Assembly: GCA_964016885.1 (NCBI GenBank)
Contig: OZ024740.1
Span: 115,382,001 to 115,446,000, forward strand
From: Eledone cirrhosa
Taxonomy: Eukaryota
Direction of reading: 5' to 3'
DNA: 64,000 nt
The position numbers and the translations under genes are program-made. Each line of letters opens with the position of its first letter. The stretch's first letter is position 1. Under the pieces are notes generated by a model, which searched no databases, had not been told where the DNA came from, and worked only from the letters and a program-made list of their open reading frames with translations. This document shows, in pieces, positions 5,099 to 62,617 of the stretch.

Positions 5099-5487
5099 AT
5101 CAATGATATTAATACATGGAAACTATCTTTATAAAACCATATTTATTTTATTAAATATATATTTCAAGGGTACCAAAATTTTGGAACGCCCTCATCAGAT
5201 AAAATACAAAAATTGCTTTATAAATATTGACATATCCAAAACCAAGAACTTAATTTTCCAAAATGAACTTAAAACGATAAGTTCTTGTTTTTGGATATGT
5301 CAATATTTATAAAGCAATTTTTGGATTTTATCTGATGAGGGCGTTCCAAAATGTTGGTACCCTTGAAATATATATAATAAAATAAATATGGTTTTATAAA
5401 GATAGTTTCCATGTATTAATATCATTGATATTATACTGCAGAAGAAAATAAAATTTGTTGAATAACCAACATATTAAATATTTCTTT

Positions 5488-5491
<4 letters not shown>
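5099..5491. mobile_element. Fold-back mini-element in (TA)n with a hammerhead in each arm
   Basis: 5099-5252 is the reverse complement of ~5278-5430. Unique tail 5431-5491. TA tracts on both sides. Confidence 0.85.
5326..5382 (+). ncRNA. Type I hammerhead ribozyme (minimal, PLE-type)
   Basis: ttttat-CTGATGA-ggg...ccc(tt)-GAAA-tatata-TA-ataaaa: 6-bp stem I, AUA cleavage triplet, palindromic stem III. Confidence 0.75.
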
Positions 5492-5519
<28 letters not shown>

Positions 5520-5525
<6 letters not shown>

Positions 5526-6693
5526 GTGAGGTTTTTTTTACAAAATGAAAAATAACCGAGGTGTCCTACACGAGTGAAAGTAGTGTAGTTAGTTTCTATC
5601 TACCCAATTTTGTTCACAAGTTTGGGGTGGATCCCAGAACACAATACAGACAGGTGGTTAAGATGTCACGCAATGAGACTGAAACTGGACATTCAAAATT
5701 TCAATGCGAATTTCTTAGTTATTCGGTCATGCCAATCGGCATCTATACCTCAAGAATAAAGAGCAACATCGTGTCATCAATGGACGTTAACATATTTTTA
5801 ATGAAGATTATGAAATAATGAATGAATATGAAATAATTTCGAAAACAAACAAGAATTTGGAGGGATTTAGCAATATGACTTTTTCATTGATTTAGTATTT
5901 GGAACATAATTTCACTAAGGTTCTTACATATTATAATGAAAGGTTTTTAAATAAATATAAGACTTATAAATAATATATAAATAAATATAAGTAAAAGGTT
6001 TTGTATTGTAGAACCATTTTTAGAGTTGGCTTTAGGTTGTTATCATAAACGGTTATATATATATATAAAATGTTTTGATTATTCTGTAATTTTTATATAT
6101 ATATAATTAATAATAATAAATATTTTTTTATTATTATTAATATTACACTCTGCATAATTGTTTCTACTTTAGGCACAAGGCCAGCAATTAACCAGTGCAT
6201 TACTGGTACTTTATTTTATCGACCCCGTAAGGATGAAAGGCAAAGTCAACCTCGGCGGGATTTATTATTATTAATATTACACTCTGCATAATACAACACC
6301 AATATACATACTGGAAACTACGCATCGAGTGCTCACTCGGGTGAACCTACACTAACTGGACGCTACAATCCCTACACACACTCACACAAGTGTATATATA
6401 TATATATATATATATATATGGTCATATTGTTATAATATTGCCAGAAATAATAACAGAACAAACTCAGTTTGGTTTAGGTTGGTTTTCGCTGCTGTATCTT
6501 TTACATCTCCATAGTTAATATATTTGGCAATCAATGTATATTATTGATTGACCAGCAGTTAAAAATACTGATATAAATATATATATATATAGTCTATCAA
6601 AGTTCTTTCGTCGCACATCTGCGACATCATCAGTGATACTATTATGTTATCTCCCATTGTATTGTAAAGTTTACGCCATTTTATACATATACA

Positions 6694-6750
<57 letters not shown>

Positions 6751-6820
6751 CAAAGAGGGTGTGGTAAGATACTAAGTGGACCATAACGCATCAGAGTACT
6801 CGATATTTGGGGTCCTGAAT

Positions 6821-6864
<44 letters not shown>

Positions 6865-7065
6865 AGAAGGTAACACACCAGAGAGAGATATATAGTGCGT
6901 TATCAATAATACAGGGAAAAAGCCACCAGTGTGATAACGCACTATATATCTCTCTCTGGTGTGTTACCTTCTCAACGTATTATATTCTAAAGGGCTCAGG
7001 ATCTCTTCCCCTTTGAGCACATTATTTACAGGGAATAACGACGGCCTATGCCTCCGTTAATTTAT

Positions 7066-7103
<38 letters not shown>

Positions 7104-7458
7104 GTGAGGTTTTTTTTACAAAATGAAAAATAACCGAGGTGTCCTACACGAGTGAAAGTATAAAGAAAATAAGATGAAATCGAAAATACAACTAGAGTCT
7201 TATTTTTTTTTTAAATATATATATTTATTTGGTTCCTTTACCAGTTTCGCATTCTTCTGCTTTTCAAAAGTAGAGTTGAGATGGAGGGTCTGTGGTTTTC
7301 CTCACATCAGATGTGAGAAAAACCACAGACCCTCCATCTCAACTCTACTTTTGAAAAGCAGAAGAACTGCGAAACCGGTAAAGGAACCAAATAAATATAT
7401 ATATTTTTTTTAAAAATAAGACTCCAGTTGCATTTTCGATTTCATCTTTTTTTCTTTA
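5520..7458 (-). mobile_element. Composite insertion: hammerhead mini-element (family I) plus ~1.5 kb duplicated flank
   Basis: 5590-7308 matches 53982-55757. 5520-5582 repeats 7099-7160. 7159-7458 is a palindrome centred near 7309. Bounded by (TA)n. Confidence 0.75.
7348..7383 (+). ncRNA. Type I hammerhead ribozyme, U3-A8 core variant
   Basis: ctt-TTGAAAA-gcag aagaa ctgc-GAAA-ccgg-TA-aag; GUA triplet, palindromic stem III, short 3-bp stem I. Confidence 0.6.
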
Positions 7459-7540
7459 TATATATATATATATATATGTGTATGTATGTATGTATGATAT
7501 ATATATGTATGTATGTATGATATATATATGTATGTATGTA

Positions 7541-7603
<63 letters not shown>

Positions 7604-7607
<4 letters not shown>

Positions 7608-8358
7608 GAAGAGAGAAGAAACATTTAGATATAATTAGTAATAAAATGTATCATACCTAAACTGTTCCTAAATTCCTCGACTACGTAGTTTCGTGGCATA
7701 AACAAAAACAATATATCAAAGATATACAGTCCTTGCGAGGTCTGCCTACTTATCAAGAGGATACCTCATTTTACTAGTCTCAAGAACGCGTCTACACGAC
7801 GTGAGAAAGAATCCAAAAAGGCGGAGGGGGAGATAGTCACGCTATATAACGGTCGAGAAACAGAGCTAAGCCTCTTATAACCACGAAGAAAATACCACGG
7901 AGGCGGAGGGGGTATTCATATCGAGGCCGTAGAAGAGGTAGTGAAGAAGGCGAGAAGTATGAGTAATGGAAGCTTTCCAGTTGTCCCCACACTTCAAAGA
8001 TTGCTCGACCAGAGGGAGTTATTAATATATTTAGAAACACACAGATACATGCGGACACACACATATATACATGAATGCATCCGCACCCAACTGTGAGTTA
8101 AGGGTGCCAACTTCACCGATGTTGCTCAATGAATGACTGGGACAGACCAATTCAGTTTGAACCAGACTGAACCAGTATCAGAGTTAAAAATACATTATGA
8201 AGAGAGAAGAAACATTGGTTCAAACTGAATTGGTCTGTCCCAGTCATTCATTGAGCAACATCGGTGAAGTTGGCACCCTTAACTCACAGTTGGGTGCGGA
8301 TGCATTCATGTATATATGTGTGTGTCCGCATGTATCTGTGTGTTTCTAAATATATTAA
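7604..8358 (-). mobile_element. Retrozyme-like insertion: one 591-bp monomer plus inverted ~140-bp arm
   Basis: Same monomer as 8675-11190 with about 6 substitutions. Inversion point near 8216. Hammerhead at 7674-7761 (-). Confidence 0.85.
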
Positions 8359-8360
8359 AA

Positions 8361-8441
<81 letters not shown>

Positions 8442-8631
8442 TTATCACCAACCAATTATATTTTGTTGTCTTATGCGATCTGATTCTTCGACTAGAAATA
8501 TTGAAATATTGAAAATAAAAATAAAAACAGATAAAAAAATAACGTCAATTTATCAGATATCCACATGAAAGATTTCATTGGAGGTTGTGGAATATAAAAT
8601 TTTGATAGCATTGAATATAATAAATTAATAT

Positions 8632-8674
<43 letters not shown>

Positions 8675-8682
<8 letters not shown>

Positions 8683-11190
8683 TTAGAAACACACAGATAC
8701 ATGCGGACACACACATATATACATGAATGCATCCGCACCCAACTGTGAGTTAAGGGTGCCAACTTCACCGATGTTGCTCAATGAATGACTGGGACAGACC
8801 AATTCAGTTTGAACCAGACTGAACCAGTATCAGAGTTAAAAATACATTATGAAGAGAGAAGAAACATTTAGATATAATTAGTAATAAAATGTATCATACC
8901 TAAACTGCTCCTAAATTCCTCGACTACGTAGTTTCGTGGCATAAACAAAAACAATATATCAAAGATATAGAGTCCTTGCGAGGTCTGCCAACTTATCAAG
9001 AGGATACCTCATTTTACTAGTCTCAAGAACGCGTCTACACGACGTGAGAAAGAATCCCAAAAGGCGGAGGGGGAGATAGTCACGCGATATAACGGTCGAG
9101 AAACAGAGCTAAGCCTCTTATAACCACGAAGAAAATACCACGGAGGCGGAGGGGGTATTCATATCGAGGCCGCAGAAGAGGTAGTGAAGAAGGCGAGAAG
9201 TATGAGTAATGGAAGCTTTCCAGTTGTCCCCACACTTCAAAGATTGCTCGACCAGAGGGAGTTATTAATATATTTAGAAACACACAGATACATGCGGACA
9301 CACACATATATACATGAATGCATCCGCACCCAACTGTGAGTTAAGGGTGCCAACTTCACCGATGTTGCTCAATGAATGACTGGGACAGACCAATTCAGTT
9401 TGAACCAGACTGAACCAGTATCAGAGTTAAAAATACATTATGAAGAGAGAAGAAACATTTAGATATAATTAGTAATAAAATGTATCATACCTAAACTGCT
9501 CCTAAATTCCTCGACTACGTAGTTTCGTGGCATAAACAAAAACAATATATCAAAGATATAGAGTCCTTGCGAGGTCTGCCAACTTATCAAGAGGATACCT
9601 CATTTTACTAGTCTCAAGAACGCGTCTACACGACGTGAGAAAGAATCCCAAAAGGCGGAGGGGGAGATAGTCACGCGATATAACGGTCGAGAAACAGAGC
9701 TAAGCCTCTTATAACCACGAAGAAAATACCACGGAGGCGGAGGGGGTATTCATATCGAGGCCGCAGAACTATCTCCCCCTCCGCCTTTTGGGATTCTTTC
9801 TCACGTCGTGTAGACGCGTTCTTGAGACTAGTAAAATGAGGTATCCTCTTGATAAGTTGGCAGACCTCGCAAGGACTCTATATCTTTGATATATTGTTTT
9901 TGTTTATGCCACGAAACTACGTAGTCGAGGAATTTAGGAGCAGTTTAGGTATGATACATTTTATTACTAATTATATCTAAATGTTTCTTCTCTCTTCATA
10001 ATGTATTTTTAACTCTGATACTGGTTCAGTCTGGTTCAAACTGAATTGGTCTGTCCCAGTCATTCATTGAGCAACATCGGTGAAGTTGGCACCCTTAACT
10101 CACAGTTGGGTGCGGATGCATTCATGTATATATGTGTGTGTCCGCATGTATCTGTGTGTTTCTAAATATATTAATAACTCCCTCTGGTCGAGCAATCTTT
10201 GAAGTGTGGGGACAACTGGAAAGCTTCCATTACTCATACTTCTCGCCTTCTTCACTACCTCTTCTGCGGCCTCGATATGAATACCCCCTCCGCCTCCGTG
10301 GTATTTTCTTCGTGGTTATAAGAGGCTTAGCTCTGTTTCTCGACCGTTATATCGCGTGACTATCTCCCCCTCCGCCTTTTGGGATTCTTTCTCACGTCGT
10401 GTAGACGCGTTCTTGAGACTAGTAAAATGAGGTATCCTCTTGATAAGTTGGCAGACCTCGCAAGGACTCTATATCTTTGATATATTGTTTTTGTTTATGC
10501 CACGAAACTACGTAGTCGAGGAATTTAGGAGCAGTTTAGGTATGATACATTTTATTACTAATTATATCTAAATGTTTCTTCTCTCTTCATAATGTATTTT
10601 TAACTCTGATACTGGTTCAGTCTGGTTCAAACTGAATTGGTCTGTCCCAGTCATTCATTGAGCAACATCGGTGAAGTTGGCACCCTTAACTCACAGTTGG
10701 GTGCGGATGCATTCATGTATATATGTGTGTGTCCGCATGTATCTGTGTGTTTCTAAATATATTAATAACTCCCTCTGGTCGAGCAATCTTTGAAGTGTGG
10801 GGACAACTGGAAAGCTTCCATTACTCATACTTTTCGCCTTCTTCACTACCTCTTCTGCGGCCTCGATATGAATACCCCCTCCGCCTCCGTGGTATTTTCT
10901 TCGTGGTTATAAGAGGCTTAGCTCTGTTTCTCGACCGTTATATCGCGTGACTATCTCCCCCTCCGCCTTTTGGGATTCTTTCTCACGTCGTGTAGACGCG
11001 TTCTTGAGACTAGTAAAATGAGGTATCCTCTTGATAAGTTGGCAGACCTCGCAAGGACTCTATATCTTTGATATATTGTTTTTGTTTATGCCACGAAACT
11101 ACGTAGTCGAGGAATTTAGGAGCAGTTTAGGTATGATACATTTTATTACTAATTATATCTAAATGTTTCTTCTCTCTTCATAATGTATTA
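8675..11190. mobile_element. Retrozyme-like tandem plus inverted array of a 591-bp hammerhead-containing monomer
   Basis: About 1.85 monomers on - (8675-9768) fused to about 2.4 monomers on + (9769-11190). Period 591 (identical ORFs at 10132 and 10723). Hammerheads at 8917-9004 and 9508-9595 (-), 9844-9931, 10435-10522 and 11026-11113 (+). Confidence 0.9.
9844..9931 (+). ncRNA. Type I hammerhead ribozyme, U3-A8 core variant (6 copies in 7.6-11.2 kb)
   Basis: tcctc-TTGATAA-gttggca...tgccac-GAAA-ctacgtag-TC-gagga: 5-bp stem I, GUC triplet, palindromic stem III (ACTACGTAGT). Confidence 0.85.
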
Positions 11191-11727: not shown

Positions 11728-11961
11728 AGTAATAATAATAATAAATGTGAAGACTAAAATTCGAAGAGGGCTCGACAAGGATAATATATCTATAAACATA
11801 TATAAAACCATAGAGCAAATATTTATTAAAATAACAGATTAAAATTTAAGCAAAGAATCGCTGCTTTCACCCTTAACGGAATCTTCTGAAACTTAGTAGA
11901 TCCCGTTAAGGGTGAAAGCGGCGATTCTTTGCTTAAACTTTAATCTGATATTTTAATAAAT
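11728..11961. mobile_element. Fold-back mini-derivative of PLE family C
   Basis: Matches the ends of 29334-30998. Further fragments at 26386-26500 and 52288-52405. Confidence 0.8.
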
Positions 11962-29269: not shown

Positions 29270-29336
<67 letters not shown>

Positions 29337-30419
29337 ATAATAATAAAATTGAAGACTAAAATCCAGAGAGGGCTCGATAAGGAAAATATATATCAAATAT
29401 ATAAGAACCGAAGAGCAAATATTTATTAAAATAACAGATTAAAGTTTAAGCAAAGAATCGCTGCTTTCACCCTTAACGGGATCTTCTGAAACTAACAAAG
29501 TCAATCTGTAAACGCAGAACTGGATATTTCAAAAAACGTTGCAACCGGAGGAAGACAGGAAGACGATACTTTGGTTCATGGTGACGTTCGCTGGCAAAGA
29601 ACGGGAAAAAACGAATAATACGTCATTAATAGGAACGGTGAAAAACAATTACGTGCAAGGACAGAACCACGTTTATGGTATAAAAGAGGTCGTAGACTAA
29701 TGTTCTCTAAATGGTGCATAGAGACGTTCTCTGGCAATGAACGAAAAAACGAAGATAATAAGTCATATGTGGAGCGTGGAGAACAATAGCGTGCAAAGAC
29801 AAAACCACGTAAATGGTATAGCAGAAGTCGTAGACTAAAATTCTAACTAGGAGACCGAATGAATCTCCGCTACAGAGTTAAGAACAAAGTAAATAAATAC
29901 AATACAGAAGTAATAGGAACAAATAAATACATACACGCAAACAGATACGTACATACACAAGCATACGCAAAACCTTACCATAGGTATACAAAGCCACGCA
30001 CATATAAATATGTGTATGTGTGTATGCTTGTGTACAAATAAATAAATAATTATATAAACGTATATAAGTAAATAAATACGTATATAACAAGCGCACACAC
30101 ATACCTACAAATAAATACATGAAGTTTCGGAGACGTAAGTCAACTAAAACAAGAAGTACACATAAACACACACCCACCATACGTACGAACCTGCATACTC
30201 ACGCAGACGCAAAACTCCCATATACACATAACCAAGCCCTAAATACCAGAATATGTAAACATTATACGCCAAAACAGTCAAATATACGTACGAGAAGGTA
30301 TACATACCTTCACAAAACATACGGGTAATATATACTTACCTATGCAAATAAGTAAAGGAATAAACAAAACATATACTTAGCTCCCACATCAAGACGTAAA
30401 TATCCACGTATAGATCGTG

Positions 30420-30671
30420 CTATCCGTTAGGGTATAACGTAGGGCTGTAATACAGGAAAGTTTTGTGCAATTTATGTTTAGAAGCCGAAATTGCCTCAGA
30501 TTTTTTGTTTAAGATGTGGTCTGTGGCGTGGAGTATTTCCAGAGCCTCAGCGGCGCAGAGGTCACATGGTCTTTTATTTCCGTTATACGATCTAGCCCTA
30601 GCTAGGATCTCCCAGTGTAACTTATATTGGGTGTGGTTGTCTTTTAGACTCCAGATATAAGCTGAAAGTGA
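30420..30671 (-). pseudogene. C-terminal fragment of a PLE GIY-YIG endonuclease
   Basis: SLSAYIWSLKD...YKLHWEIL..ARSY....CDLC..E...I......LNKKSE.IS...H pattern. The ORF's first ~15 aa come from the inverted arm. Confidence 0.75.
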
Positions 30672-30925
30672 CGAACGTTCATTGCCAGAGAACGTCTCTA
30701 TGCACCATTTAGAGAACATTAGTCTACGACCTCTTTTATACCATAAACGTGGTTCTGTCCTTGCACGTAATTGTCTTTCACCGCTCCTATTAATGACGTA
30801 TTATTCGTTTTTTCCCGTTCTTTGCCAGCGAACGTCACCATGAACCAAAGTATCGTCTTCCTGTCTTCCTCCGGTTGCAACGTTTTTTGAAATATCCAGT
30901 TCTGCGTTTACAGATTGACTTTGTT

Positions 30926-30976
30926 AGTTTCAGAAGATCCCGTTAAGGGTGAAAGCAGCGATTCTTTGCTTAAACT
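30926..30976 (+). ncRNA. Hammerhead-like motif with CAGAAGA (U4A) core
   Basis: agttt-CAGAAGA-tccc gttaa gggt-GAAA-gca...tgc-TT-aaact; the same core is present in all family C copies. Confidence 0.5.
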
Positions 30977-30992
30977 TTAATCTGTTATTTTA

Positions 30993-35605: not shown

Positions 35606-35667
<62 letters not shown>

Positions 35668-36352
35668 ATACTTTGGGAGGGTCATGTTGCCAATAAGAAA
35701 CACACGCACCAGTTGCTTTCACTTCAATTTATTATAATAAATTTATAAATTTAGGAATTTATAAATTTATAAATTTCTGGTTGGTTGGTTGGTTCCACAA
35801 CCAGATAGTTGTTTATATATTGTCAAAGTTCTTTCGTCACACATTCTGTGACCTCTTCAGTGACTGAGGATTCTTTTCTTTGTTTTTGTGCCTCTCCTTT
35901 GTTCTGTCCTACGCCATTTTGTTTCTGTGTGTGTGTTGTGCGCTCAGTCTGCGCATGCGCCACATCCGGGTGTCTGTGTGTGTTTATATTCGTTTATTTA
36001 TTTGTTTATTTACATGTTACCGGTTGGTTGTTTGTTCTATGTGTGTGTGTGTTTTCATTTTGTCCTTAATTGTAAGTTGTGATGTTGATGTTCCACTCAT
36101 ATTTTCTATTTAATTTTGGTTGTAATTCTTTTATGTTTATTGCCTCTGTGATTTGTCTAAATATTGCGTCTTTTCTGTGTGTAGATTCTATTTTTATGTC
36201 TATGTTCTCTAATTTACCCTTATGTTCTATTTTAGCATGTTGGTAGAGTACAGATGATTCTTTACTATCTTGAAGGTCTCGCCAGTGTTCATTTATCCGT
36301 TCCCCTACACTACGAGCTGTCTCACCTATGTACACTATATTTTTATCTCTAC

Positions 36353-37759
36353 TGTCCTACTCCCTCTCCCTGATCATACGCCCCATCATTGAAATGTCCC
36401 CAGATGTATGTGACAGCACGGAGGACCTCCTCAGCAGAATCGGCGAGAGTAACCGATCTAGGGACCTAACAAACTGCATAATAGGTAGTATGGATGTTGT
36501 GTCCCTGTATCCATCTATTGACGTGGATTTTGCTGTGGAGAAATGCGTAGAAATGATCAGTGAGAGAAATGTTGAGTTCCGTGGGATTGATACCAGTGAG
36601 CTGGGACTCCTATTTAAACTTACCTATAGTAATAATTACCTAGACACATATGACCTTAGCAACCTGTGCCCTACAAGACCAGCAAGAGGCAGACCACCTA
36701 CCATTACCTCAATGGCCAAGAAAACCCACACAGATAGATGGAATGGGTGGACCAGAGCCATACGGACACCCGAAAACCACGATGAACTGAAGAAAATGAT
36801 TGCACATGCAGTAGGGGCCAGCATAAAACTAACCCTTAAGGAACATATGTTCAAATTTAATGGAAAAACATATGCCCAAGAGGAAGGAGCAGCCATTGGT
36901 GTTAGCATTGCAGGCGACATAGCTAACTTATTCATGGTATGGTGGGACAGTAGACTCAAACTTAAACTTAAAGAACAATTAGAAGACCCCTTAACCCTGA
37001 TAATGTACTCCCGCTACGTTGATGATATAAACATCGTAGTTAAGACACCCCCACTAGAGAACAGTCAGGAACTAGAGAAAAACACAATGGAAAGCATCCA
37101 GCAAATAGCTAACTCCATCCACCAGAGTATTAAAGTTACTATAGACTACCCAAGTAAACACCCCAACCATCGATTACCTGTACTAGACACAGAGCTCTGG
37201 TTAGATACCATTAATAACAAAAAACAAATCCTCCATTCCCATTATGCCAACCCATGACTTCCAAACATCTGATCCACCGAAACTCGGCTGTTTCGGACCA
37301 TACCAAAATCAACATACTGATTGCGGATTTGGTACGGGTGATGAGAAACGTGTCCCGCATGTGCAACCCCGAAGAACTAGAGAGACACATACAACATTTC
37401 ATCCACCGTATGCAGTTCTCTGGTTACAATCAGAGAGATAAAATCAGAGTGTATAGAGGAGCCAGAACCAAATGGGAAAAAATGGTAAATAATGACACAA
37501 ATGGGACCTGCCCTTTGTATAGGAGCAAATTTTGGAATAGAATAGAAAGAACTAAGAATAAGGCTAATAGAATAAACTCATGGTATGATAGCAATAAATA
37601 CCAGAGTGTAATGTTCATCGATACAACCCCTAGAGGTGAATTAGCTTACAAATTTAGAAGGGCCCTAGATAAACATAAACTCAATATTAAGATAGTAGAA
37701 AGACCAGGTACCTCCGTAAAAACACTTAATAGCAAGACATACCCTTTTCAAAGACCCCC
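36353..37759 (+). pseudogene. PLE reverse transcriptase (core plus thumb), N-terminally truncated, one frameshift near 37250
   Basis: GSMDVVSLYPSI, QEEGAAIG..IAGDIANLFMVWWD, RYVDD, DYPSKH...LPVLD, YA(K)PMTS, SGY motifs. Confidence 0.93.
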
Positions 37760-38143
37760 TGTATAGATAAGAAATGTATAACCTGTAAAATAAGCCCCCA
37801 TATTAACTGTAAAACTAGAAATGTAGTGTATAGCATAAGATGTACTGAAGGACAATGTAGAGACAAAAATATAGTGTACATAGGTGAGACAGCTCGTAGT
37901 GTAGGGGAACGGATAAATGAACACTGGCGAGACCTTCAAGATAGTAAAGAATCATCTGTACTCTACCAACATGCTAAAATAGAACATAAGGGTAAATTAG
38001 AGAACATAGAAATAAAAATAGAATCTACACACAGAAAAGACGCAATGTTTAGACAAATCACAGAGGCAATAAACATAAAAGAATTACAACCAAAATTAGA
38101 TAGAAAATATGAGTGGAACATCAACATCACAACTTACAATTAA
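37760..38143 (+). pseudogene. Cys-rich linker plus GIY-YIG endonuclease
   Basis: CIDKKCITC.....NC..RNVVYSIRC....C......YIGETARS..ER..EH...H....H...RQITEA..I; out of frame with the RT by one base in the C-run at 37755-37759. Confidence 0.93.
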
Positions 38144-38344
38144 GGACAAAATGAAAACACACACACACATAGAACAAACAACCAACCGGTAACATGTAAA
38201 TAAAGAAATAAATAAACGAATATAAACACACACAGACACCCGGATGTGGCGCATGCGCAGACTGAGCACACAACACACACACAGAAACAAAATGGCGTAG
38301 GACAGAACAAAGGTGAGGCACAAAAACAAAGAAAAGAATCCCCA

Positions 38345-38387
38345 GTCACTGAAGAGGTCACAGAATGTGTGACGAAAGAACTTTGAC
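38345..38387 (+). ncRNA. Minimal type I hammerhead in the pLTR
   Basis: gtca-CTGAAGA-g gtcac...gtgac-GAAA-gaac-TT-tgac. Copies at 35822-35864 (-), 42417-42459 (-) and 42613-42655 (+). Confidence 0.85.
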
Positions 38388-38585
38388 AATATATAAACAA
38401 CTATCTGGTGGTGGAACCAATCAACCAACCAGAAATTTATAAATTTATAAATTCCTAAATTTATAAATTTATTATAATAAATTGAAGTGAAAGCATGGTG
38501 CGTGTGTTTCTTATTGTCAACATGACCCTCCCAAAGTATAACAATATCGGTTTCAACACACGATTTCAGATAAAGAATCTTGCTA

Positions 38586-38669
<84 letters not shown>

Positions 38670-39431: not shown

Positions 39432-40449
39432 CAATATCGGAGAAAGCTTTTTAGCGATACTCCGGCCAAATTCCAACTCACTCAACAAACATTAGGAAAT
39501 AAGTGATTATATTCCCAATTATGTGTTCGGGGTGCTAACTAAAAGTATTGCGTGGAAAATTGGATGTATTATTTCATATGAGACATATCTAATATATCTC
39601 TTCCCAGACGGACGTCTCGTTTCATTATAGGATTCCTACAATTTGGGTGAAATTATACCAATTTATGTAGGAGCTTGTATACCATCAATAGATATATATT
39701 CAAGTGGGCTCCTATAATTCATCAGTGGGTGCCCCAATAATACTAATATTGATAATTTAACCAACATCAGCATTTAGCAATAATCATCATCCTCTGTGCC
39801 TGAGGTATCTGTCAGGTTGCCAGTCCAGCAGTTTTAAAGAAGTGCTCAAACTGATTAAAAAAATGAGGAAGTAAATTACCGCCTAAAAAACAATACATGC
39901 GCATGACAATGAATTCTGAAAGGAATTGAGGCCACGTGCTAAGAACTCAATTGGAAATTGAAAAAATATCTATGTGTGTACAACATTTGATGACACACAC
40001 AGATATTTTCTCGGGCAAAATAACAGAATGAGATATAAGGAACAATCAATATTCATATATAAAAAATAAACAAAGAAATGCTGACCTTATACCGGGAATT
40101 TTTTCAAATCTGTTGCACCAAGAGTAAATATATAAATACAATATCGGAGAAAGCTTTTTAGCGATACTCCGGCCAAATTCCAACTCACTCAACAAACATT
40201 AGGAAATAAGTGATTATATTCTCAATTATGTGTTCGGGGTGCTAACTAAAAGTATTGCGTGGAAAATTGGCTGCATTTTTTCAAATGAGACATATCTAAT
40301 ATATCTCTTCCCAGACGACGTCTCGTTTCATTATAGGATTCCTACAATTTAGGTGAAATTATACCAATTTATGTAGGAGCTTGTATACCATCAATAGATA
40401 TATATTCAAGTGGTCCTCCTATAATTCATCAGTGGATGCCCCAATAATA
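39425..40449 (-). mobile_element. Partial tandem (about 1.45 x 707 bp) with a hammerhead in each direct repeat
   Basis: 39425-39741 repeats at 40131-40449. ccca-CTGATGA-attatagga...tcctataat-GAAA-cg...cg-TC-tggg at 39603-39729 and 40310-40436. Confidence 0.85.
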
Positions 40450-42208: not shown

Positions 42209-42808
42209 CGTTTCTGAATTTGTTTAGCAAGATTCTTTATCTGAAATCGTGTGTTGAAACCGATATTGTTATACTTTGGGAGGGTCATGTTGCCAATAAG
42301 AAACACACGCACCAGTTGCTTTCACTTTAATTTATTATAATAAATTTATAAATTTAGGAATTTATAAATTTCTGGTTGGTTGGTTGGTTCCACAAGCAGA
42401 TAGTTGTTTATATATTGTCAAAGTTCTTTCGTCACACATTCTGTGACCTCTTCAGTGACTGGGGATTCTTTTCTTTGTTTTTGTGCCTCTCCTTTGTTCT
42501 GTCCTACGCCATTTTGTTTCTGTGTGTGTGTTGTGTCACAACACACACACAGAAACAAAATGGCGTAGGACAGAACAAAGGAGAGGCACAAAAACAAAGA
42601 AAAGAATCCCCAGTCACTGAAGAGGTCACAGAATGTGTGACGAAAGAACTTTGACAATATATAAACAACTATCTGGTTGTGGAACCAACCAACCAACCAG
42701 AAATTTATAAATTCCTAAATTTATAAATTTATTATAATAAATTGAAGTGAAAGCAACTGGTGCGTGTGTTTCTTATTGGCAACATGACCCTCCCAAAGTA
42801 TAACAATA
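42206..42808. mobile_element. Coding-less fold-back of the Naiad-type pLTR
   Basis: Two inverted copies of ~38268-38547 meeting near 42536, plus an extended tail; in (TA)n. Confidence 0.92.
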
Positions 42809-42816
42809 TATATATA

Positions 42817-44016
42817 TAAACGGAAAAAATGAAACGAAATTTCATTTCTCATTCTTAGTACGGCTGTTACTTTAAATATAAGCATGTATACGTACATACA
42901 TATATGTATACAGACGCACAGTAGTATGTATATATATATATATACATACATGCACACATATATATATGTACGTATGGATTCACCGAACATTTATTATAAT
43001 GCTCGGTGTGTTTGTAAACAAATATCCCGAATTAAGCCGTACAGTGTCTTGCAAGCATCGTTGCTCATTTGTTCAACCCTGACAAAGGAACGCTGTACTA
43101 GTTTCAAGCTTATTAGCTATCGTCAGCAACGTATAACTTCCTGCCAGATGATTGAACGTCTGAAAGTGTATACTTTCCTTATGCATATTAACGGCTGAGC
43201 AGCCTAAATTGCATATCGAGTGAGTTAATCGGTCGGTGTACCGAAAACGATAAACGGAAAAAAATGAAACGAAATATCATTTCTCACTCTTAGTACGGCT
43301 GTTACTTAAATATAAGTATGTATACGTACATACATATATGTATACAGACGCACAGTAGTATGTATATATATATACATACATGCACACATATATATATGTA
43401 CGTATGGGTTCACCGAACATTTATTATAGTGCTCGGTGTGTTTGTAATCGAACATCCCGAATTAAGCCGTACAGTGTCTTGCAACCATCGTTGCTCATTT
43501 GTTCAACCCTGACAAAGGAACGCTGTACTAGTTTCAAGCTACTGTGCGTCTGTATACATATATGTATGTGCGTATACATACTTATATTTAAGTAACAACC
43601 GTACTAATGGTGAGAAATGAAATTTCGTTTCATTTTTCCGTTTATCGTTTTCGGTACCCCGACCGATTAACTCACTCGATATGCAAATTAGGCTGCTCAG
43701 CCGTTAATATGCATAAAGAAAGTATATACTTTCAGACGTTCAATCATCTGGCAGGAAGTTATACGTTGCTGACGATAGCTAATAAGCTTGAAAATAGTAC
43801 ACCGTTCTTTTGTCAGGGTTGAACAAATGAGCAACGATGCTTGCAAGACACTGTACGGCTTAATTCGGGATGTTTGTTTACAAACACACCGAGCATTATA
43901 ATAAATGTTCGGTGAATCCATACCTACATATATATATGTGTGCATGTATGTATATATATATATATATACATACTACTGTGCGTCTGTATACATATATGTA
44001 TGTACGTATACATACT

Positions 44017-45069: not shown

Positions 45070-45075
<6 letters not shown>

Positions 45076-45252
45076 TATAAGTATTAATAAAATAGATGTT
45101 CTTTTGATCAATTACATTTCATTATACATATTTCGGATGTACAACAGTACGTCCTCATCAGACAATATATAATGATACATGACATACCCTGAGATGTTAA
45201 ATGGTTAAGATTTAATCAAGGTAGTACCTTGATTAAATCTTAACCATTTAAT
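45070..45252 (-). mobile_element. Family G mini-element with hammerhead (45119-45165)
   Basis: ttgt-CTGATGA-ggacgtac tgtt gtacatcc-GAAA-tatgta-TA-atga; short terminal fold-back; homologous to 47297-47455. Confidence 0.8.
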
Positions 45253-45459
45253 ATATAAATATATATATATATATAACGAAGGAAATGTGGTAAGGAACCA
45301 GGTGGACACATTTCCTTCGTTATCTAGCTCCTATTCCCGTAGTAGAGCACTTTCCGACCCTACCACGCCGTATCCAGACTTTTCCGCTAAGCTCAATTCA
45401 TTTCACCCGCACCACGGGGTCTTACCGGTTCCTATTATATATATATATTTATATGAAAT

Positions 45460-46400
45460 ATATGAAATATAAGAATCAAAGAACTGTTCAAAACATTATT
45501 GTGCTTACAGCTGTTTCCTCCAAACCGAGGTTTGGATTCTTCGGAGCAATTTATTAATGCATGGACAGTTATAAAGTTAACTAAAGAACACCAGACTACG
45601 ATCTCTAACTGGATTGTCGTGGATTATGTGAAAGGCATATAATCGAAATATACACTCCCTTGACCATGAAAATGCCGAAGTACATGAATTACTTGACATC
45701 CCTGCGTTGTGCATCTCCAATACTTATAACACTTTTAATGCTTGCACTATCTTTAATACTTATAATATTTCTCCACACACAGACTACATCAATCATATAA
45801 AGACTTTGCCACCAGATCTACCAACCTAACACTCTTATTTACCTACCTAAGTGCCTCTACCACACATATCTCTCTGCCACACTATATAAACAAGACGCAC
45901 ATGCGTGCCACACATATAACATTTGCACTATATAACCACTTATCTTCATGTTGTACTTTAACCTATATCTTTGATTTTTGATTGTACCTATTAATATAAA
46001 TGTAATCTCGAAGTGTGTACTGCCACTCTAAATTTTGTAATGAATGTTGACCCACAATGTTTGAATATGTATCAATGTTTGAATATGTATTGGTATGTCT
46101 CTCGGCTGAAAAGGAGGTCATATAACTGTCCATGCATTAATAAATTGCTCCGAAGAATCCAAACCTCGGTTTGGAGGAAACAGCTGTAAGCACAATAATG
46201 TTTTGAACAGTTCTTTGATTCTTATATTTCATATAACTGCTCTGTAAATCATCTGATGTTTTTACATTGAGCTACTTAACTTACTGGTAATAAGGTAGTA
46301 ATACATTACTGCCTACCACTATTTAGGGTGTGTGTAAAATACTTACAACTGCTTAAGGTTTTGTGTTTACATAACCATAAATAGTATAACTAATACTATA
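45460..46400 (+). mobile_element. Family H element: inverted arms with a hammerhead (46146-46192 +, 45502-45548 -)
   Basis: 45460-45573 is inverted relative to 46121-46233. tgct-CCGAAGA-a tccaaacc tc ggtttgga g-GAAA-cagctg-TA-agca. Confidence 0.8.
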
Positions 46401-47170: not shown

Positions 47171-48850
47171 CAGTATATATATATATATATATTAAATTGT
47201 TAAACAATATTCAATGATTATGTCAAAGAATGAGTTTTACAGTAGATTGGAAGCACTCAACGTTTAAAAAAAAACAATTTTCTGGAGTTATTAATATTAA
47301 AATATAAGTATTAATAAAATAGATGTTCTTTTGATCAATTACATTTTATTATACATATTTCCGATGTACAACAGTACGTCCTCATCAGACAAAATATAAT
47401 GATAGATGACATACCCTGAGATGTTAAATGGTTAAGATTTAATCAATGTAAGTACCATGTAGACCAATACATCATGCGTAGCGAAACCTTGGACTTAGAA
47501 CCGGCAGGCTCGTCTATCGCGAAAGCGTTCAACCCCTGAAACTAGAAGATCGAACGGACCACATCCGGCAACCACTGGCTATTAGATCCACAGGTACATC
47601 TCCCAGAGAGTCCACGCAGATAATAGTGAACCCCAGGTGATCTATGAACGTTTAAACAAGACCAGCTGCGCCTGGAGCTATGCAGATGACTGCATACGCA
47701 TGATGGATATCGTGCCTGGAGCTATGCAGGGGACTGCATAGGCAGAATGGATATCGCGCCCACACGGTCACCAGTACTGTTCATCCTGTTATATTTTTGT
47801 AATAATTTTATGATAATTTTGTAATAATTTTGCGATAATTTTATGATAATTCGATAATTTTGTAATGATTTTGTGGTAATTTTGTGATGATTTGATAATT
47901 TTGTAATGATTTTGTGGTAATTTTGTAATAATTTTGTAATAATTTTTAATCCTGTATCAATAATTTTAGAATGTTTTTTTGTGATAATACATGGTTAGAT
48001 CACTGAAGCTACCTTATACCTTCTTAAAGATACATTTTATGATTATTGTCTTTTTGCTTATGTATTTTCTTAGTTACCACTTTCTTTAATCTTGCCCAAC
48101 TTGATAAACTCCTTGAATTGCTCCCTAATTAAATTACTTAAATTGCTTAGATTATTGTATCTATTATGCCTAGGTTGTATCTGTTGAAGCAGCCCTTTGA
48201 AAGTTCCTCGGATATCCCAAATACCGTAATTTTTAATTTTTAACTTTTAATGTATAATTTTCCTCAATTCGTTTTTATATTTATCCTTAGAGGCTCTGTA
48301 AAATTTTAATTCTTCGAAGGGTCTCTCGGAAGAAGTTCCTATTAGAAATATTAAAGGGGCCTTTTCTGAGAGATTTATGGAAGGCTCTCTGAATTAACCT
48401 CTAATTGATTAGTTTTTTTCAACCTAGTTTTCAATTCAGTTTTCTGAATTTTGTAAACGTGATCTCGGGGGAAGAAGGTTTTTTTCTTTGGGAAAAAAAA
48501 TTTTTTCTCTAGAAGAAATTTCATAGGAACTTTATATATTTTTTAGGGAAACTTTATATTTTTATTTTCTTATTTTATTAGCCTCTTAATTTTCTTCTAG
48601 ACTAATAGGTTTATTGGAGCCTGTAAGCTTTATGCACTCATTGAGGGATTTTCTAAGGTGCTTCTGCGGGACCCCAAGTCTTTTAGTTTAATGTTGATGC
48701 GTAAATTATATATTTTTGTCTAATTTTTAAACTTCAATCCCTGACCCCGACAACTAATATAAAAGAGCCCCCCTTAAAGCGGAGTTGCTGATGTATACAA
48801 CAATTTCAAACTGCTAGTCTTGAGTGATACGTTGATGTAAACAATGATCT
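47171..48850 (-). mobile_element. Longer family G copy: hammerhead (47343-47395) plus heavily decayed PLE-like body
   Basis: attttgt-CTGATGA...GAAA-tatgta-TA-ataaaat. Minus-strand LRYLGYPRNF (~48200-48230) resembles the PLE thumb GYP motif. The rest has many stops. Confidence 0.5.
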
Positions 48851-51899: not shown

Positions 51900-52739
<840 letters not shown>

Positions 52740-53981
52740 TTATGGATAAAGTAGTCGACTGCTAGCTTATATTTCGTGTATTTTGCTAATTTTCCGTTAG
52801 CGCTCAGTAACTTCTTTTTTTTTGTAGGATCTGATTTCTTTTATTCAGATCACTTAGAAAAACTATGTCCCAGAAATACAAATCGATGATATACAGCATA
52901 AACAATTGAGTTGAAGTTGGTTCAAATTCTGACAAAAGCACTGCTCTTTGTCAATAGTAAAGACACTCCATCCTCAACGACTCCGTTTGAACCACCAGAA
53001 TGTATTAGTGACTAAATTATTGTACTACGAAATCATAGCTTTTGTGTTTCAAGATCCGCTACATGCGTTATGTTGTTCTCTTGTTTTTGTGCATAACATT
53101 TAATTATTTTACGTTGCTTTAGTTCATCTAGCAGTCTTGAATTGGTGGAGATATTACCTAAGATAGACTATATTTTCATTCAGGGTAATATTTCTCTATC
53201 ATCAATTTCATTTCATAAATCTTGAGCCGAATCCTCTAGGATTAGAAGATATTTTCATCTATTTACTTTTTACTCTGCAATTCAGATTAAATAGGTAATA
53301 AAGTGAGACATTATGTACCATGAGATGGAACACTATGCTAGTTAGTTCCTCTTGCTCCCTATAAATTATAAAATGGCGAGAGATTTCCACCAAGTACGGT
53401 CGTAAGCTTCATGACAAGCCTATTCCCAGGACAGGCCCATGTTGCCAAATTCTTTAACCAGTAGGTCTTTACAGGCCTGTCTCGCCTCCTAACATGGCCT
53501 TTCACACGAGAGAAATTCTTATTGGTCTCTTCGTAGTCATGTACAGCATATAACCAGGCATTTTCTTGCACTGATGGATTTCTGTGGATTATTCAGCCTG
53601 GCCCTTTCCATGGCCTCTTCGGGTACCACAAGGTATAATACCAGAGACCACATGGTATAATAATAGCATGGAGGAATTGTTGACTCCACAAGATGAATTA
53701 ATATGAATCATAATGTTGCCTCAGAGATAAAATTGTAGAAAGACGAGGTGAAGCAGCACGTAGCACAAGAAATTGAGAGGACAGAAGTTCTCTTGTTTTC
53801 CACGATGGACATTCAAGTTTATGGTTGAATGAACAAACCCTATGTTAAATTAGCATGTAAGTGGATGCGTATTCCACATTTACTTTGAACCATAATGCAA
53901 TTTGCAGGTCGAATTAACGTGACACAGTATATGTCAAAGCTGAACCTTTGAATAACCGATACAATAAATCTGGTTAACTTT

Positions 53982-54788
53982 TAGTTTCTATCTATTTTGT
54001 TCACAAGTTTGGGGTGGATCCCAGAACACAATACAGACAGGTGGTTAAGATGTCACGCAATGAGACTGAAACTGGACATTCAAAATTTCAATGCGAATTT
54101 CTTAGTTATTCGGTCATGCCAATTGGCATCTATACCTCAAGAATAAAGAGCAACATCGTGTCATCAATGGACGTTAACATATTTTTAATGAAGATTATGA
54201 AATAATGAATGAATATGAAATAATTTCGAAAACAAACAAGAATTTGGAGGGATTTAGCAATATGACTTTTTCATTGATTTAGTATTTGGAACATAATTTC
54301 ACTAAGGTTCTTACATATTATAATGAAAGGTTTTTAAATAAATATAAGACTTATAAATAATATATAAATAAATATAAGTAAAAGGTTTTGTATTGTAGAA
54401 CCATTTTTAGAGTTGGCTTTAGGTTGTTATCATAAACGGTTATATATATATATAAAATGTTTTGAACATAGTTTTGATTATTCTGTAATTTTTATATATA
54501 TATAATTAATAATAATAAATATTTTTTTATTATTATTAATATTACACTCTGCATAATTGTTTCTACTTTAGGCACAAGGCCAGCAATTAACCAGTGCATT
54601 ACTGGTACTTTATTTTATCGACCCCGTAAGGATGAAAGGCAAAGTCAACCTCGGCGGGATTTATTATTATTAATATTACACTCTGCATAATACAACACCA
54701 ATATACATACTGGAAACTACGCATCGAGTGCTCACTCGGGTGAACCTACACTAACTGGACGCTACAATCCCTACACACACTCACACAA

Positions 54789-54824
<36 letters not shown>

Positions 54825-55088
54825 TCATATTGTTATAATATTGCCAGAAATAATAACAGAACACACTCAGTTTGGTTTAGGTTGGTTTTCGCTTCTGTAT
54901 CTTTTACATCTCCATAGTTAATATATTTGGCAATCAATGTATATTATTGATTGACCAGCAGTTAAAAATACTGATATAAATATATATATATATATAGTCT
55001 ATCAAAGTTCACATCATCAGTGATACTATTATGTTATCTCCCATTGTATTGTAAAGTTTACGCCATTTTATACATATACATGCATATA

Positions 55089-55155
<67 letters not shown>

Positions 55156-55227
55156 CAAAGAGGGTGTGGTAAGATACTAAGTGGACCATAACGCATCAGA
55201 GTACTCGATATTTGGGGTGTCCTGAAT

Positions 55228-55282
<55 letters not shown>

Positions 55283-55487
55283 GTTGAGAAGGTAACACAC
55301 CAGAGAGAGATATATAGTGCGTTATCAATAATACAGGGAAAAAACCACCAGTGTGATAACGCACTATATATCTCTCTCTGGTGTGTTACCTTCTCAACAT
55401 ATTATATTCTAAAGGGCTCAGGATCTCTTCCCCTTTGAGCACATTATTTACAGGGAATAACGACGGCCTATGCCTCCGTTAATTTAT

Positions 55488-55553
<66 letters not shown>

Positions 55554-55752
55554 GTGAGGTTTTTTTTACAAAATGAAAAATAACCGAGGTGCCTTACACG
55601 AGTGAAAGTATAAAGAAAAAAAGATGAAATCAAAAATGCAACTGGAGTCTTATTTTTTTAAAAATATATATATTTATTTGGTTCCTTTACCGGTTTGGCA
55701 GTTCTTCTGCTTTTCAAAAGTAGAGTTGAGATGGAGGGTCTGTGGATTTTCT

Positions 55753-55757
<5 letters not shown>
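53982..55757. repeat. ~1.75-kb block duplicated at 5590-7308
   Basis: Collinear, near-identical sequence, including the same SINE pieces, TA tracts and mini-elements. Confidence 0.95.
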
Positions 55758-58895: not shown

Positions 58896-59435
<540 letters not shown>

Positions 59436-62172: not shown

Positions 62173-62617
62173 GTATATATATATATATATATAAAAACAT
62201 GAGAAGAATGAATACTGCGTGGTTGCACATGGGTTACATATGATAAAAATAGTCCTTCATCAGTGATTTTCCAACCTTCATTGGTATTTCATCGCTTTAA
62301 AAATCATATACCTCCAGTTGAACGAGCAATAGCTAAATAAAGCTATTGGGACAAGTAAATCGCGTAAAGCGAGCGAGACATGTAAACAAATATAGAAGGA
62401 TAGCAACGCAAAGATAGGAAAAAACAAGCACATGGAGTCCGATCAGCATAAGCTGTGTGGATATCATGAGCGAGAGACAACAGACCGTGCGACGCGAATG
62501 AGGTGTGAGCAAGAAAGAACCCCACTTCAGGCCAAACAGGAGGAAGTGAGAAGGGGAGAAGCAGAGAATGAGTGAGTGGAAGTGCGAGAAAGAGGCCAGT
62601 CGAGAGAAAGTGTAACT

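Follow-up and report, generated by a model that had tools for sequence, protein, structure and literature searches.

A 1.5-kb duplication framed by putative PLE terminal-repeat pieces, with its donor 48 kb away, in Eledone cirrhosa

The duplicated block and its frame

Using a masked self-comparison and an alignment of the window, i.e., the whole stretch of 64,000 nucleotides analyzed here, we observe that positions 5589-7307 (copy A) align with positions 53981-55757 (copy B). This confirmed a duplication proposed in a first-pass annotation, which had placed it one base off (5590-7308 and 53982-55757). The two copies are located on one chromosome, 48,392 bp (48.4 kb) apart, and their flanks are unrelated to each other. 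The block proper (5589-7098 in A, a copy of the donor block at 53981-55548 in B) shows 6 substitutions in 1291 columns (0.46%), with TA runs left out of the columns, and nine indels in all, five of which occur at TA tracts; the four located away from TA tracts leave B without 5 bp and 18 bp, and A without 12 bp and 2 bp.

Copy A contains three parts that B lacks, i.e., an outer tail, a 6-nt filler and an inverted arm. A target TA tract of 29 bp (5491-5519), located between a mini-element resembling a Penelope-like element (PLE; 5102-5490) and the insertion, is followed by the outer tail (5521-5582, - strand), which is 62 bp long, of the consensus type of the repeat family we call family I, and stops exactly at the tail/arm boundary. 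The filler, gtgtag (5583-5588, + strand), is the reverse complement of tail positions 5566-5571, a match expected by chance at about 7%. Downstream of the block are an inner tail (7099-7160, - strand), again of consensus type and, in a three-way comparison, without the two private changes of B's tail; an inner arm, A1 (7161-7308, - strand), with five private substitutions and one deletion outside a T/A run; and a tail-less inverted arm, A2 (7310-7458, + strand), with no private change outside that run. The right target TA tract (7457-7477) forms the right edge of the insertion. The outer tail is identical to the inner tail at 62 of 62 bases and to B's tail at 60 of 62, and the tail pattern, with up to 3 mismatches allowed, occurs at three places in the window compared to none in 100 shuffles. 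The second element tail at the left of A, the inverted arm at its right, which at 7311-7457 stands head to head with the inner arm across a 1-nt spacer, and the TA tracts on both sides were all described in the first-pass annotation, and all are present.

At the donor, a resident solo family I element, consisting of a tail and an arm (55549-55757, - strand), carries five private substitutions, three in the arm and two in the tail in the three-way comparison with A1 and A2, one of them at hammerhead position G12 (55697). In A, the outer tail ends and A2 starts at one and the same boundary, so that together they make up exactly one family unit. These outer ends look as young as the block, with no private change over 209 bp when the T/A run is excluded (P 0.62 given the rate of the block, P 0.004 given that of A1 and B). 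Every outer family I end adjoins TA runs, and the tail is present on one side only, with 62 bp on the direct copies and none on the inverted arm; in family II it measures about 45 bp. Since the element at 7099-7458 is built like those at 35665-38588 and 42222-42809, described below, we interpret it as a solo PLE terminal-repeat element that belongs to a different family. Judged by its sequence, the frame appears to be a non-coding PLE terminal-repeat element, laid out within TA tracts as tail, block, tail/arm and inverted arm. No autonomous partner of family I, i.e., an element with RT and GIY-YIG that shares its terminal repeat, was found within the window, and the tail pattern gave no match in viral contigs or in the genome contigs searched.

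The block contains no open reading frame of 100 amino acids or more and no gene, and at least 868 of its 1510 bases (at least 57%) are TA runs or marked older repeat pieces. It is a geneless mosaic and for the most part not unique host DNA, and with no gene in the cargo the direct biological effect is probably nil. The repeats of the window presumably resemble octopus SINEs. A SINE-like piece within the block (6130-6292, with its equivalent in B) is flanked, by eye, by a direct repeat of about 29 bp, which is long for a TSD. Another part of the block, at 5831-5960, is single in the window and is a fragment of a repeat that is highly abundant in three of the read runs used below (X1, X21 and X7). 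The block also contains a nested minimal hammerhead related to family II (6593-6640, - strand, C3-G8 core at 6633), which is intact in A; the 18 bp missing from B are the core of this motif.

The hammerhead-like core of family I itself is located on the - strand of the tail-bearing arms, so that the block lies downstream of a ribozyme-like motif; the orientation of the core at both B and A thus agrees with the earlier claim that the block is downstream of the ribozyme on its sense (-) strand. An intact U3-A8 core is present only in A2 (7351-7380), together with a 4-bp helix II, a palindromic helix III that pairs in the dimer, and a weak helix I of about 3 bp. The other cores are broken, in B by the change at G12 and in A1 by the loss of one helix II base. 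Our hammerhead scan finds family I only once the U3-A8 core, a variant reported for PLEs (PMC4209133), is allowed, and a search of Rfam gave no match at the gathering score and no hammerhead among the best 150 of 442 rows by E-value, which we regard as hairpin and repeat noise. We class the motif as a candidate hammerhead.

We also compared positions 5427-6150, of which 5427-5528 were masked, with read contigs from 4 of 23 runs; two of these, X4 (from another organism) and X7, are small-share runs that were used all the same. Summed contig depth in X1, which is not a copy number, is about 7e5 on the tail versus 5.84 at 5652-5776, indicating that family I is very abundant and that the block as a whole is low-copy and not a high-copy composite repeat; its low-copy parts have depths of 5.8-16, compatible with two copies. 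The tail type found in A is the family majority, with B's variant at 5566 accounting for a depth of 519 of 576,644 in X1 and its variant at 5564 absent among the X1 rows listed. In X4, the sequence after 5582 matches the first 30 nt of A2 exactly, the match of A2 to the consensus covering these 30 nt only; there is more noise in the consensuses of X1 and X21 (agreement 0.72-0.76). An X1 contig 1633 nt long, with the 5-bp gap, spans 5589-5959 and extends leftwards into what we infer to be the flank of B. In one X1 contig, the 5-bp deletion of B occurs together with the base of A at 5737, which allelic variation or contig smoothing would fit. Another X1 contig, gapless over 5931-6084, matches the state of A at the 12-bp indel, as judged from 6 diagnostic bases only. 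The tail-filler-block junction of A is absent among the 24 contig pieces listed (with 2324 others, and with 5427-5528 masked), and X4 shows no cover over 5702-5826, its left flank being masked, and yields no orthologue.

Direction of copying and origin of the element parts

The first-pass annotation took the 54-kb copy as the donor of the 5.5-kb copy, and this direction is supported by an old repeat (53913-54076, + strand) that runs across the donor breakpoint at 53981 and aligns with 16717-16894 (nhmmer E 1e-7). When 16717-16894 is compared with B, each side of the breakpoint alone scores above all 500 shuffles, whereas A is alignable from 5589 only. The right part of the same repeat is present in A (5589-5691, + strand), truncated at the junction, and extends leftwards in B. 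The 54-kb copy is the donor because the old repeat spans its breakpoint whereas A begins there, and the left flank of B, which had been described as unique, is crossed by this repeat. A retains ancestral states that are gone from B, i.e., the 18-bp hammerhead segment, which is found in family II copies, and the 5 bp absent from B, which improve the fit to the old repeat. The source was therefore not B exactly as it is assembled. The view that A arose in a single young event is supported.

The duplication had been explained as a read-through transcript of the donor element, captured and retro-inserted, i.e., as a 3′ transduction. If RNA had been read through from B's element, the similarity of A's inner tail and arm to B should equal that of the block, and it does not: 12 of 208 sites differ between these parts and B's element, next to a block that is 99.5% identical (6 of 1291 columns; Fisher P 3e-7), and without the two T/A-run columns the difference is 10 of 206 sites (P 7e-6). 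None of the five changes private to B is found in A, and the probability that all five arose in the B lineage after the duplication is 1.5e-4 to 3e-3 at the block's rate. The three-way comparison of A1, A2 and B instead indicates three templates, with B's element not among them. At the 3′ end of the cargo, some 100 nt of the - strand contain neither AATAAA nor ATTAAA, nor any A tract, in both copies, a criterion weaker for PLEs than for L1. Together with the location of the donor only 48 kb away, which is what is expected of DNA repair copying and not of dispersed retroposition, these results do not support a retro-copied transcript of the donor element; a hammerhead-type PLE mini-element is involved, as had been proposed, but simple 3′ transduction fails. 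The identity of A's two tails is uninformative, since both equal the consensus of a very abundant family, and no TSD is readable at the insertion ends, which lie in TA repeats.

Three other origins for parts of A were considered and rejected. Fold-back of A2 as the source of A1 would leave 6 private differences in a young event, ADAR editing would account for only one of A1's five substitutions (the single A>G on the RNA strand), and an old duplication homogenized by conversion is at odds with the young appearance of the outer tail and A2.

We also compared private changes between the tail-bearing and the inverted arms of five insertions, four of which were informative, with 24823-25423 (26 versus 12) excluded because its tail side is unclear. 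In this post hoc comparison, tail-bearing arms carry 17 changes versus 6 (P 0.03), or 15 versus 4 without the T/A run (P 0.02), with the excess in the tail-bearing arm in three of the four. The asymmetry is not general: one insertion shows 2 versus 3, and several have identical arms. The excess may mean that inverted arms are sometimes added later.

Proposed mechanism and alternative explanations

The filler, the proximity of the donor, the lack of poly(A) and the presence of a same-family element at the donor together point to homology-guided DNA copying. We propose, with a probability of about 0.5, that this locus is a PLE-triggered local duplication in which a same-family element 48 kb away was the site of the DNA copied into a gap. 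The proposal would begin with two steps that can be read at the locus, i.e., that family I is a very abundant non-coding unit of tail and arm sitting in TA tracts, and that the left tail and the right inverted arm are one such unit split at the tail/arm boundary. A PLE protein acting in trans would have nicked both strands of the TA tract at 5.5 kb, and both target ends would have been primed on one young RNA from two known initiation sites, with the left cDNA halting where the second primer sat. At the same-family element, 1.5 kb of chromosomal DNA would then have been copied to span the gap, with tail/TA homology as a guide, and the 6-nt filler would have closed it. The left junction shows no microhomology, and TA/tail homology is present at the right junction.

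Two variants of this scheme fit equally well. In variant (a), A1 would be an older resident at 7.1 kb that was re-targeted, and the broken end would have invaded B in an SDSA-like manner; the excess of changes in tail-bearing arms gives a weak hint of this variant. In variant (b), the complex would also have primed in the TA tract beside B's element, with A1 made from another family RNA, and the block would then have been copied across during repair. With a genome size of 1-5 Gb assumed, and before selection bias, a dispersed copy would land as close as 48 kb with a chance of 2e-5 to 1e-4; the proximity partly reflects such bias, since only pairs within the window could be noticed, and a nascent RNA would be local too. 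The reading as a DNA route comes from one event at one locus.

Short untemplated fillers are typical of RT jumps, and the filler would also fit an RNA route, in which RT, having copied the tail of a young RNA, switched to a read-through transcript of B's element, went on through the block and then primed again, from the TA tract, on a third family RNA to give A1. The block does lie downstream of B's element on the ribozyme strand, the core of B is broken at G12, so that its transcript would stay uncut, and read-through with template jumps has been proposed for PLEs (PMC3846280). This route is nevertheless unlikely, in that it requires three RNAs, one of which, the donor RNA, would contribute nothing of the element that should recruit it, and it is faced with the lack of a poly(A) end and a donor just 48 kb off. 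A transduction could be rescued if a donor allele or third copy had an A1-type element beside the block, or if B's element was later overwritten by gene conversion, and the ancestral 18-bp and 5-bp states held by A and lost in B, and the X1 contig that pairs B's 5-bp deletion with A's base at 5737, are in keeping with this. Against it, alleles 0.46% apart should not differ by 5-6% over the adjoining 208 bp (P 3e-7), and the depth of 5.8-16 is compatible with two copies, though with a third possible; we regard it as unlikely.

It is improbable that a PLE-independent host repair duplication was decorated later by separate family I insertions. TA tracts are hot spots, with 97 tracts of at least 16 bp in the window, many mini-elements are nested and family I is very abundant, but nothing separates the outer tail from the breakpoint region save the filler-side join itself, the end of this tail coincides with the tail/arm boundary, the outer tail and A2 partition one unit, and the inner element would have had to enter the same tract in the same orientation as at B, which has a chance of about 1% per tract (a rough estimate for 2 events and 97 tracts). 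Least credible is an assembly artefact or misplaced haplotig, which we consider highly improbable: the left junction is absent among the 24 contig pieces listed, with 5427-5528 masked, but A and B differ by 6 substitutions and four non-TA indels, A holds ancestral sequence absent from B, the flanks are unrelated, and an X1 contig shows the state of A at the 12-bp indel on 6 diagnostic bases.

The mechanism behind PLE inverted arms and tails, and behind the transfer of intron-containing host DNA, is treated as still open in PMC8557442 and PMC11167929. As a tentative generalization, less likely than the reading of this locus itself, PLE complexes might use the two start sites of a single RNA to prime both target ends, and might return to TA tracts next to older copies of their own family, with the resulting breaks repaired from neighbouring same-family copies. 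If this is true, a genome very rich in such mini-elements would steadily produce local duplications of kb size, and both the one-sided tail and the published captures with “two direct plus one inverted pLTR”, intron retention included, would be explained without cargo RNA. This locus separates cargo from RNA from cargo from DNA because the donor, the copy and three distinguishable element variants are present side by side, and it gives a pattern that is countable genome-wide; it is mechanistically useful and biologically modest.

Comparison with known systems and other elements in the window

Capture of host DNA between pLTRs by PLEs has been published for Adineta vaga (Arkhipova et al. 2013, PMC3846280), and as at our locus the cargo there is located between two direct pLTR parts and one inverted pLTR and was moved in trans; cases of non-coding cargo are also mentioned. 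In A. vaga the cargo is an intron-containing gene, with an 8-bp TSD and an empty allele, whereas at our locus non-coding DNA was captured, its donor can be pointed out at a distance of 48 kb, and the frame does not come from the donor's element. The event works like PLE capture and fails the 3′ transduction test on source-element variants. PLE capture of host DNA is already known; what is new is the visible donor and a frame not derived from the donor's element, and open-access literature listings showed no PLE capture in which the donor is identified and its element demonstrably did not serve as template.

PLEs typically have inverted arms, tails and (TA)n targets (PMC8557442), and one octopus annotation lists PLE families as recently active (PMC13282606). 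In vitro, a PLE protein cuts and extends both strands, with two start sites bounding the tail (Frangieh et al. 2024, PMC11167929). AT-rich targets, cutting and extension of both strands, and a one-sided tail between two start sites are common to that system and ours, with a tail of 62 bp here versus 30-40 bp there; foreign DNA enclosed by a tail-only cDNA and an arm-only cDNA that face each other, as proposed for our locus, is absent from the parts of PMC11167929 examined.

The candidate ribozyme resembles minimal PLE hammerheads and those of animal non-LTR retrozymes in its minimal type I core, covariant U3-A8 pair and palindromic helix III (PMC4209133; bioRxiv 10.64898/2026.07.22.740005), and these systems also have opposite-strand pairs 100-700 bp apart, as here. 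Unlike known minimal hammerheads, it has a helix I of only about 3 bp, and it is named from sequence alone. The head-to-tail units of non-LTR retrozymes are not seen, with only solo or head-to-head arms in the window.

Duplications made by SDSA repair (Pace et al. 2009, PMC2671141) likewise have a donor near on the same chromosome, filler and no poly(A). Their proximal class is located within 5 kb and measures at most 619 bp, compared to 48 kb and 1.5 kb here, and unlike them our insertion has outer ends that are both like retroelement cDNA. For L1, twin priming, the joining of cDNA ends to distant loci and templated inserts have been described (bioRxiv 10.1101/2024.08.27.596794). Two DNA ends primed on one RNA, the engagement of distant loci and the copying in of genomic DNA would be shared with these cases, but L1 transductions end in poly(A), of which there is none here, and the templated inserts of L1 typically measure <250 bp and lie no farther than 15 bp from the site (10.1101/2024.08.27.596794, PMC6431247).

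Other elements in the window are built in a similar way. The reference PLE of the window (35665-38588, + strand) is 5′-truncated, frameshifted and of a different family, with the same layout of inverted arm and one-sided tail. It has three frames, with RT at 36274-37257, GIY-YIG at 37733-38143 and a CX4CxxC motif before GIY-YIG, as described for Neptune/Nematis (PMC8557442). Two of the three frames match Pfam, RVT_1 at E 9e-5 (below the curated cut-off) and GIY-YIG at E 8e-5 (above it), and its RT as a query found two short metagenome contigs at 45-48% identity. A hammerhead is present in its 3′ repeat; one side bears a tail of about 45 bp, the other a tail-less inverted arm. This 696-bp inverted arm copies the 3′ end and not the truncation point; two cDNAs primed separately would explain this better than fold-back. 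Its solo terminal-repeat derivative (42222-42809) has no open reading frame and consists of tail, arm and inverted arm, the arms differing by 2 mismatches in 273 bp across a 1-nt spacer and carrying intact hammerhead cores on both strands.

Two further structures lie beside copy A. The head-to-head mini-element at 5102-5490 contains C3-G8 hammerhead cores (5198, - strand; 5332, + strand) and a 64-bp one-sided extension reaching the TA tract used by copy A, and on the other side TA tracts enclose a very young tandem-plus-inverted array (7606-11187) with a 591-bp period, whose copies are 98-100% identical and in whose unit a search for a hammerhead core found none. At 29335-30991, inverted arms of 316 bp (two differences) enclose a body with an open reading frame (30420-30800) that looks like a PLE C-terminus by eye and has no Pfam match; related pieces are located at 11745-11952, 26388-26484 and 52290-52405. 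Positions 59017-59429 and 62198-62617, considered as a possible second capture, have the appearance of ordinary copies of a single repeat.

A further hammerhead-bearing unit occurs on the - strand as two direct copies (96%) 2.2 kb apart (45072-45251 and 47299-47459), which enclose a perfect 115-bp inverted repeat (45459-45573 and 46121-46235). A 312-bp direct repeat (97%) at 39432-39742 and 40139-40449, 707 bp apart and starting from a TA tract, is possibly a partial tandem of another element. Finally, a repeat family in scrambled tandem and inverted pieces is present at 1-387 and at 42816-44016, where it abuts the solo element ending at 42809.
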